Shown here in pieces: positions 2,207 to 2,375 of a stretch of 7,200 nucleotides of DNA. The stretch is from a virus (taxonomy: Duplodnaviria > Heunggongvirae > Uroviricota > Caudoviricetes). The stretch lies in IMG/VR virus record IMGVR_UViG_2541047502_000014, one strand, 5' to 3'. Each line of letters opens with the position of its first letter. Position 1 is the stretch's first letter. The position numbers were made by a program, and so were the translations under genes. The notes beneath the pieces were generated by a model that made no database searches, was not told the origin of the DNA, and saw only the letters and a list, made by a program, of their open reading frames with translations.

Positions 2207-2226
2207 ACGGGGCGGGAGCGTCGCGG
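2207..2226. other. Putative cos site (cosN-like cohesive-end core)
   Basis: ACGGGGCGGGAGCGTCGCGG matches the recalled lambda cos junction ACGGGGCGGCGACCTCGCGG at 15 of 20 positions, with identical flanks ACGGGGCGG and TCGCGG. It lies about 170 bp upstream of the terS start, close to the lambda spacing. By analogy the 12-nt cohesive end would be GGGCGGGAGCGT (2210-2221). Confidence 0.5.
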
Positions 2227-2299
2227 AAAAAGGCTAGTTTTTGCATTTTTATCGGCCACCATCATCTTTGCATCTTATTGATTATTAATGGTTATTTGT

Positions 2300-2375
2300 T
2301 TTTTGTATGTCGAATTGAGTGTTTTTTGTTCGACATCGAACGCGTTTTCTTAAAGTTGTTCGCACGATGCATGTT
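2300..2375. promoter_or_regulatory. Putative cosB-like terminase small-subunit binding region (TCGAA-type repeats plus AT-rich bendable DNA)
   Basis: Between the cosN-like core and terS there are repeated GTCGAA / GTTCGA / GTTCGC motifs (2309-2314, 2328-2333, 2358-2363) and a perfect palindrome GTTCGACATCGAAC (2328-2341), preceded by an AT-rich tract (2240-2310). The position is analogous to the lambda R-site/IHF region. Confidence 0.35.

Follow-up and report, generated by a model that had tools for sequence, protein, structure and literature searches.

The window analysed here, a stretch of 7,200 nt from the Caudoviricetes record IMGVR_UViG_2541047502_000014 in IMG/VR, was identified as the late region of an E. 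coli-type lambdoid prophage. Positions 2181-2395 very likely represent a lambda-like cos of the Gifsy/mEp460/cdtI group, in which a DUF1441 small terminase (TerS) is combined with a gpA-type large terminase (TerL), located in a prophage that is decaying; the group consists of lambda-like E. coli phages and is well populated. The initial annotation of this DNA had proposed a lambda-type cos upstream of an inactivated terminase, and this was borne out by the match to lambda, by the positions at which the genome records of the phages cdtI and Tritos begin and by the confirmed lesions in the terminase genes. The type of cos is already known, the exact cohesive end already marks the start of deposited genomes, papers on lambda-like cosN deal with the group, and the site matters little for new biology.

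The predicted cohesive-end site and packaging end

The lambda cos has the order cosQ-cosN-I2-R3-I1-R2-R1, and its nicking site, cosN, has a clear counterpart in the window. When the alignment was anchored on the lambda nick, the 20-mer ACGGGGCGGGAGCGTCGCGG at 2207-2226 was identical to the lambda sequence ACGGGGCGGCGACCTCGCGG at 16 of 20 positions (the initial annotation had recognised the match and counted 15), with the flanks ACG and CGCGG the same in both. The predicted cohesive end, GGGCGGGAGCGT (2210-2221), shares bases 1-6 (GGGCGG) with lambda and is unlike it at bases 7, 8, 9 and 11; the difference in the centre of the cohesive end that had been noted is thus real, and comprises four bases rather than five. 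The cosN of the window (2208-2223, plus strand) accordingly reads CG-GGGCGGGAGCGT-CG, with the first six bases of lambda and CG at both nicks, and in this it agrees with the lambda-like cos sites (12-nt 5' cohesive ends) as defined by Feiss and colleagues (PMC4669245). From this we infer that the top strand is nicked at 2209/2210 and the bottom strand at 2221/2222, which would leave the 12-nt 5' overhang GGGCGGGAGCGT; offsets given below with plus or minus signs are counted from the predicted cosN nick. The cohesive end begins 186 nt ahead of the terS ATG (2396), compared with 190 nt in lambda, a spacing that had rightly been called lambda-like, and a cosQ-like heptamer is found about 30 bp upstream, as in lambda. 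An inverted repeat around cosN (GGTGGCC/GGCCACC) was also considered, but it is off-centre and its right arm is not kept in one of the related groups of loci (class C, introduced below), and it was treated as chance.

IMG/VR was scanned for the exact core plus its flanks, which returned at least 120 contigs; all locus counts in the following refer to the 120 listed loci. Among these, three classes of the terminase recognition region, cosB, were distinguished: class A (cdtI-like), class B (which includes the window) and class C (mEp460-like). When the scan was repeated with its anchor on the right-hand side of the nick, the same contigs were found, mostly isolate-genome entries, none of which begins at the nick. 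The core is short and GC-rich, and might therefore resemble lambda cosN by chance in an intergenic spacer that has no function. Such a coincidence is extremely improbable, since the window holds no second site within 6 mismatches of the lambda 20-mer on either strand, only 2 of 300 shuffled windows contained any match with up to 4 mismatches, the spacing to terS resembles that of lambda, the core and flanks recur in the contigs above together with a conserved cosQ and a conserved site for integration host factor (IHF), and phage records begin at cosN.

These record ends indicate where the packaging end probably lies. The GenBank records of cdtI (AB285204) and Tritos (OV696610) begin at the equivalent of window position 2210, their first 33 nt equal window 2210-2242, and their right ends read ...GGGTCCT(C/T)CCGGTGGGG..CCTGCCACG, closing in ...CCACG. 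The two phages thus share with the window the 33 nt after the nick, the right end from cosQ to CCACG and a TerL of approximately 87% identity, but they differ in having another cosB class after +34, a TerS of only about 42% identity and GGGTCCT at cosQ. Phage LLS, the TerS of which is 58% identical to that of the window, has an annotated 12-nt 5' cohesive end, GGGCGGCGCGCT, at its genome start; the annotation is its authors' inference, drawn from the phylogeny of TerL and an analysis of mEp213 by Feiss. Compared with the window, LLS differs in its cohesive end's right half and in having 129 nt to terS.

Two assemblies made from virion DNA are disturbed at the same place. In that of Ayreon, approximately 150 nt that are unrelated, a piece of terS among them, stand in place of exactly +4 to +16, while LR595868 has its start 5 nt ahead of the nick and is short of 3 nt at the right nick. 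In the Ayreon record (MF807953.1) the misassembled stretch that replaces cosN occupies 111-253 and is crossed by a coding sequence (CDS) named 'putative late gene regulator'. The mEp460_4F5 record (LR595868.1) reads GGGCGGGAGCGCGG at 1-25, where its relatives have 3 nt more at the right-hand nick; its start is probably an assembly artefact at cohesive ends.

A search for identical cores in intact phages, as the initial annotation had proposed, was successful in that cdtI, Tritos and PhiR55_1 all carry the core. PhiR55_1, of the PhiR40.1/PhiR47.1/PhiR55.1 group, is plaque-forming, having been used in plaque assays (bioRxiv 10.1101/2025.11.03.685801), and has the same cosN, cosB class and TerS/TerL as the window, to which it is 98.6% identical over 1790-6720. 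Between -60 and +190 the two differ in three bases, namely one in cosQ, position 2170, and one in cosB that varies in other class-B loci too. Phages of the mEp460/Ayreon type have the same cosN, a related cosB and a TerS of about 78-86% identity, although mEp460 carries G at base 12 of the cohesive end where the window has T. Unlike the window, the PhiR and the mEp460/Ayreon phages both represent viable groups, their terS, terL and portal genes being intact and their cosQ reading GGGTCCT.

The initial annotation had made its claim depend on related intact phages not having their termini elsewhere. The only ends that differ lie at the equivalent of 2370/2371, where the mEp460 record ends and the Ayreon and mEp460_ev081 records start. 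This rival terminus was rejected because the authors of the Ayreon genome state that it was opened arbitrarily at terS, by convention. Genomes of this phage group are correctly opened at the equivalent of window position 2210; mEp460 and Ayreon were opened elsewhere.

The Gifsy-1/Gifsy-2 (Salmonella) and LLS/mEp213 phages, which the literature calls lambda-like 12-nt 5' cos phages, also have DUF1441 small terminases, with 48-58% identity to that of the window; the right halves of their cohesive ends are not the one seen in the window. Gifsy-1 has been listed among phages with lambda-like 12-nt ends, differing at bases 8, 9 and 11 (PMC4669245). Gifsy-2 (NC_010393.1, 425-450) reads CCACG-GGTGGCTTCGGGCT-CGCGG, with 14 nt instead of 12 between the flanks and another left half, and judging from this record its cosN may have an overhang of another length or sequence than the Gifsy-1 ends of the literature.

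The altered cosQ and the decay of the packaging genes

The initial annotation had regarded the cos as intact, which could not be upheld. Upstream of the region it covered, the cosQ homologue at 2181-2187 (plus strand, -29 to -23 from the nick) reads GGCTCCT, while lambda and 117 of the 120 listed loci have GGGTCCT. The lambda heptamer lies at -30 to -24, and cosQ is thus 1 bp nearer the nick in the window and its group. GGGTCCT is kept in those 117 loci although the surrounding bases vary, and the altered form (G2183C) was found in 3 of the 120, as well as in an O157:H7 prophage. Wherever the portal gene could be checked (the window, Z1486, L074 and L083), GGCTCCT was accompanied by a frameshift in it, and no locus with an intact portal gene carried GGCTCCT among the loci compared. 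In lambda, ending packaging needs cosQ and cosN, while beginning it needs only cosN and cosB, and natural variation of cosQ 'is not apparent' (PMC4669245, PMC4856287). The near-invariance of GGGTCCT, with its loss confined to a lineage whose portal gene is dead, provides evidence from natural variation for selection on cosQ in this group. By analogy with lambda, the G-to-C change probably impairs the window copy as a termination site. The cos could probably still serve for initiation by a helper phage with a matching small terminase, because its cosN and cosB match the sequences in related loci whose packaging genes are intact.

Gene lesions were called against the viable PhiR55_1 and an O157:H7 prophage, and they confirmed the broken terminase that had been annotated. 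The terS pseudogene (DUF1441; 2396-2886, plus strand) has a 1-bp deletion at 2682, and the terL pseudogene (2886-4988, plus strand) has a TGG codon changed to TGA at 3624-3626. Pfam matches of terL to GpA_ATPase (E=1.8e-57) and GpA_nuclease (E=6.5e-86) place it in the gpA family, as expected of the large-terminase gene that follows a lambda-like cos, and it aligns with lambda gpA at 24% identity over 623 aa (E=5e-18). The portal pseudogene (5197-6706, plus strand) carries a +1 insertion near 6220, which is shared with the O157:H7 prophage and is the sole gene lesion common to the two, the terS and terL lesions being unique to the window. In O157:H7, Z1486 has, like the window, the +1 frameshift in the portal gene and C for G in cosQ. 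Since the portal and cosQ changes are shared while the terS and terL lesions are found in the window only, comparison of the sequences suggests a stepwise decay from a common defective ancestor.

In view of this decay, the cos may be fully dead, capable of neither initiation nor termination even with a matching helper. The mutated cosQ fits this explanation, as do the three mutations by which packaging and portal genes are inactivated, and the nearby insertion sequence (IS) element, which imply that selection on the cos has ended. It is nevertheless rather unlikely, as 2208-2395, comprising cosN, spacer and cosB, is one base off the viable PhiR55_1, at a position that is variable in other class-B loci, and initiation in lambda needs only cosN and cosB (PMC4669245).

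Spacer, cosB and the small terminase

To the right of cosN the window follows the lambda order of an A/T-tract spacer, an IHF-consensus site and repeats, over approximately 190 nt to terS. The tract 2227-2330 contains 71% A+T compared with 47% for the whole window, and both this AT-rich tract and the TCGAA-type palindrome at 2328-2341 were present as initially annotated. By analogy with lambda I2, which comprises bases 18-50 and has poly-dA/dT segments (PMC4856287), 2227-2259 (plus strand; AAAAAGGCTAGTTTTTGCATTTTT...) was assigned as an I2-like spacer with A5 and T5 tracts. The sequence is the same in all three cosB classes up to about +34 and divergent beyond. An IHF-consensus-like site, AATCAATAAGATG, lies on the minus strand at 2271-2283 (+62 to +74) with 1 mismatch to WATCAANNNNTTR. 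The consensus is found on the minus strand at +62 or +64 in all cosB classes, perfect in classes A and C, where the N positions alone vary, and with one mismatch in class B.

The putative cosB core (2307-2341, no strand assigned), with candidate binding sites for the small terminase, consists of a TGTCGAA inverted repeat and a palindrome: a perfect 8-bp inverted repeat formed by ATGTCGAA (2307-2314) and TTCGACAT (2329-2336) overlaps the palindrome GTTCGACATCGAAC (2328-2341). TGTCGAA is found at +99/+100 in the window, LLS and Gifsy-2 and, with 1 mismatch, at +98 in class C, and its inverted partner is found at +120/+122 in class B and Gifsy-2. A weak candidate TerS site, placed by its position where lambda has R3, is CACCATCATC at 2257-2266 (plus strand, +48 to +57); motifs of the type CAYCATCATC occur at +45 to +58 in the window, LLS and the listed locus L038. 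Finally, a block of 28 nt, CGTTTTCTTAAAGTTGTTCGCACGATGCATGTTTAAA (2343-2370, plus strand), is conserved in classes B and C, in part also in L038, and might represent an R1-like site or an element of the terS leader. In contrast to lambda, a set of the type R3-I1-R2-R1 was not resolved between cosN and terS, three clear copies corresponding to R3, R2 and R1 were not seen, and the lambda R-site sequence was absent from the region, the TGTCGAA repeats being unrelated to the CGTTTCC R sites of lambda.

The same region could instead be mainly a small protein gene (open reading frame (ORF) 2017-2406) or hold a terminator hairpin at 2327-2342. Phage records do have hypothetical CDSs annotated across it ('hypothetical protein' in PhiR55_1 and mEp460), but 1-nt indels between classes B and C across the ORF leave no conserved frame, and the tract is mosaic besides its high A+T content. 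One terminator-like hairpin was present, TGTTCGACATCGAACG followed by CGTTTTCTT, against 0.9 expected by chance, and its stem is lost in class C and Gifsy-2. A scan for terminators and promoters gave nothing above chance, an Rfam scan gave sub-threshold eukaryotic families only, and both versions of this explanation were judged very improbable.

Relative to the PhiR55_1 protein, TerS identity is 100% in class B, 86% in class C and 42% in class A, whereas the corresponding values for TerL, with the same cosN throughout, are 99%, 99% and 87%. As far as these comparisons go, the cosB class tracks TerS, whereas cosN stays with the conserved TerL. One cosN joined to three cosB/TerS classes illustrates a modular split between cutting site and recognition site. 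The lambda and N15 terminases showed no cosN specificity in experiments, specificity being located in TerS-cosB and bases 7-12 being naturally variable among lambda-like phages (PMC4669245). With this and the sharing of one cosN by three classes, the initial suggestion that the different core implies a distinct cos specificity did not stand. The packaging specificity of a window-type cos nevertheless very probably differs from that of lambda, because the small terminase is of the DUF1441 family and the repeats are unrelated to the lambda R sites. Pfam assigns TerS to DUF1441, and not to Phage_Nu1, the family that goes with R sites of the CGTTTCC type; BLASTP with TerS gave no Nu1 match, alignment with Nu1 by hhalign reached a non-significant probability of 4.6%, and a sequence search of the PDB returned nothing significant. 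Structure prediction for the N-terminal 95 aa of TerS, run without an alignment, was too poor for a fold search (predicted local distance difference test score (pLDDT) 63, predicted template modelling score (pTM) 0.35). The TerS/cosB pair of the window would work like the lambda system but lies outside the Nu1/cosB-lambda specificity group.

Several points weigh against the identification of 2181-2395 as a cos of this type. The accessible literature gave no measured ends for this exact cos, and a literature search with the cohesive-end string returned unrelated papers only; the deposited record starts could have been chosen by analogy with lambda instead of being measured. Furthermore, the putative binding sites of the small terminase are placed by position and conservation only, the IHF-like site of the window, with its mismatch, is not significant on its own, homology of the window TerS to Nu1 is not demonstrable, and the presumed consequence of the altered cosQ is judged from lambda.

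In a live relative, the DUF1441 small terminase would bind cosB, probably at the TGTCGAA inverted repeat at about +99 to +127, assisted by an IHF-induced bend (about +62 to +74) and by the A/T-tract spacer. The gpA-type TerL would thereby be positioned to nick cosN 12 bp apart, giving the 5' overhang GGGCGGGAGCGT, and packaging would proceed rightwards through terS until cosQ (GGGTCCT) and cosN end it at the next cos. In the window neither terminase nor portal protein is made in cis, and what is left is a relic. As its cosN and cosB are unchanged, its cosQ is mutated and no second cos follows, the relic might act as an initiation-only packaging site, from which a helper with the same TerS (e.g. 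a PhiR55.1-like phage) packages rightwards into the prophage and the flanking chromosome, though we consider this quite unlikely. If true, it would yield defective one-cos particles or, where a compatible cos is present one genome length downstream, transducing particles, and a dead prophage would then seed a cos-phage equivalent of lateral transduction.

Genes around the site

From 2396 the gene order is terS, terL, a small head gene, the portal gene and a ClpP-protease/capsid fusion gene. At the opposite side, positions 1 to about 300 of the window (minus strand, with an orfA-like ORF) are the end of an IS3-family element, which abuts the lysis region immediately upstream of the Rz lysis gene (396-833). 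In the closest O157:H7 prophages, IS3/IS1203 copies sit elsewhere in the same prophage.

Between Rz and cos are placed a KilA-N/ORF11CD3 gene (1036-1533) and a small ORF of 85 aa that has no Pfam match (1530-1787). This exact arrangement was absent from the complete E. coli genomes searched. PhiR55_1 and the O157:H7 prophage align to the window from 1790 onwards only, and 1036-1787 therefore looks, by alignment, like an insertion of accessory genes. The following approximately 600 nt (1790-2395) contain no convincing genes. Within them, the non-coding sequence 1800-2077, upstream of cos, is found at 92-97% identity in more than 300 phage records, where it is unannotated. Most of the records that share it belong to Stx-converting phages, whose terminase region is another one, and the sequence seems to mark a conserved boundary between modules.
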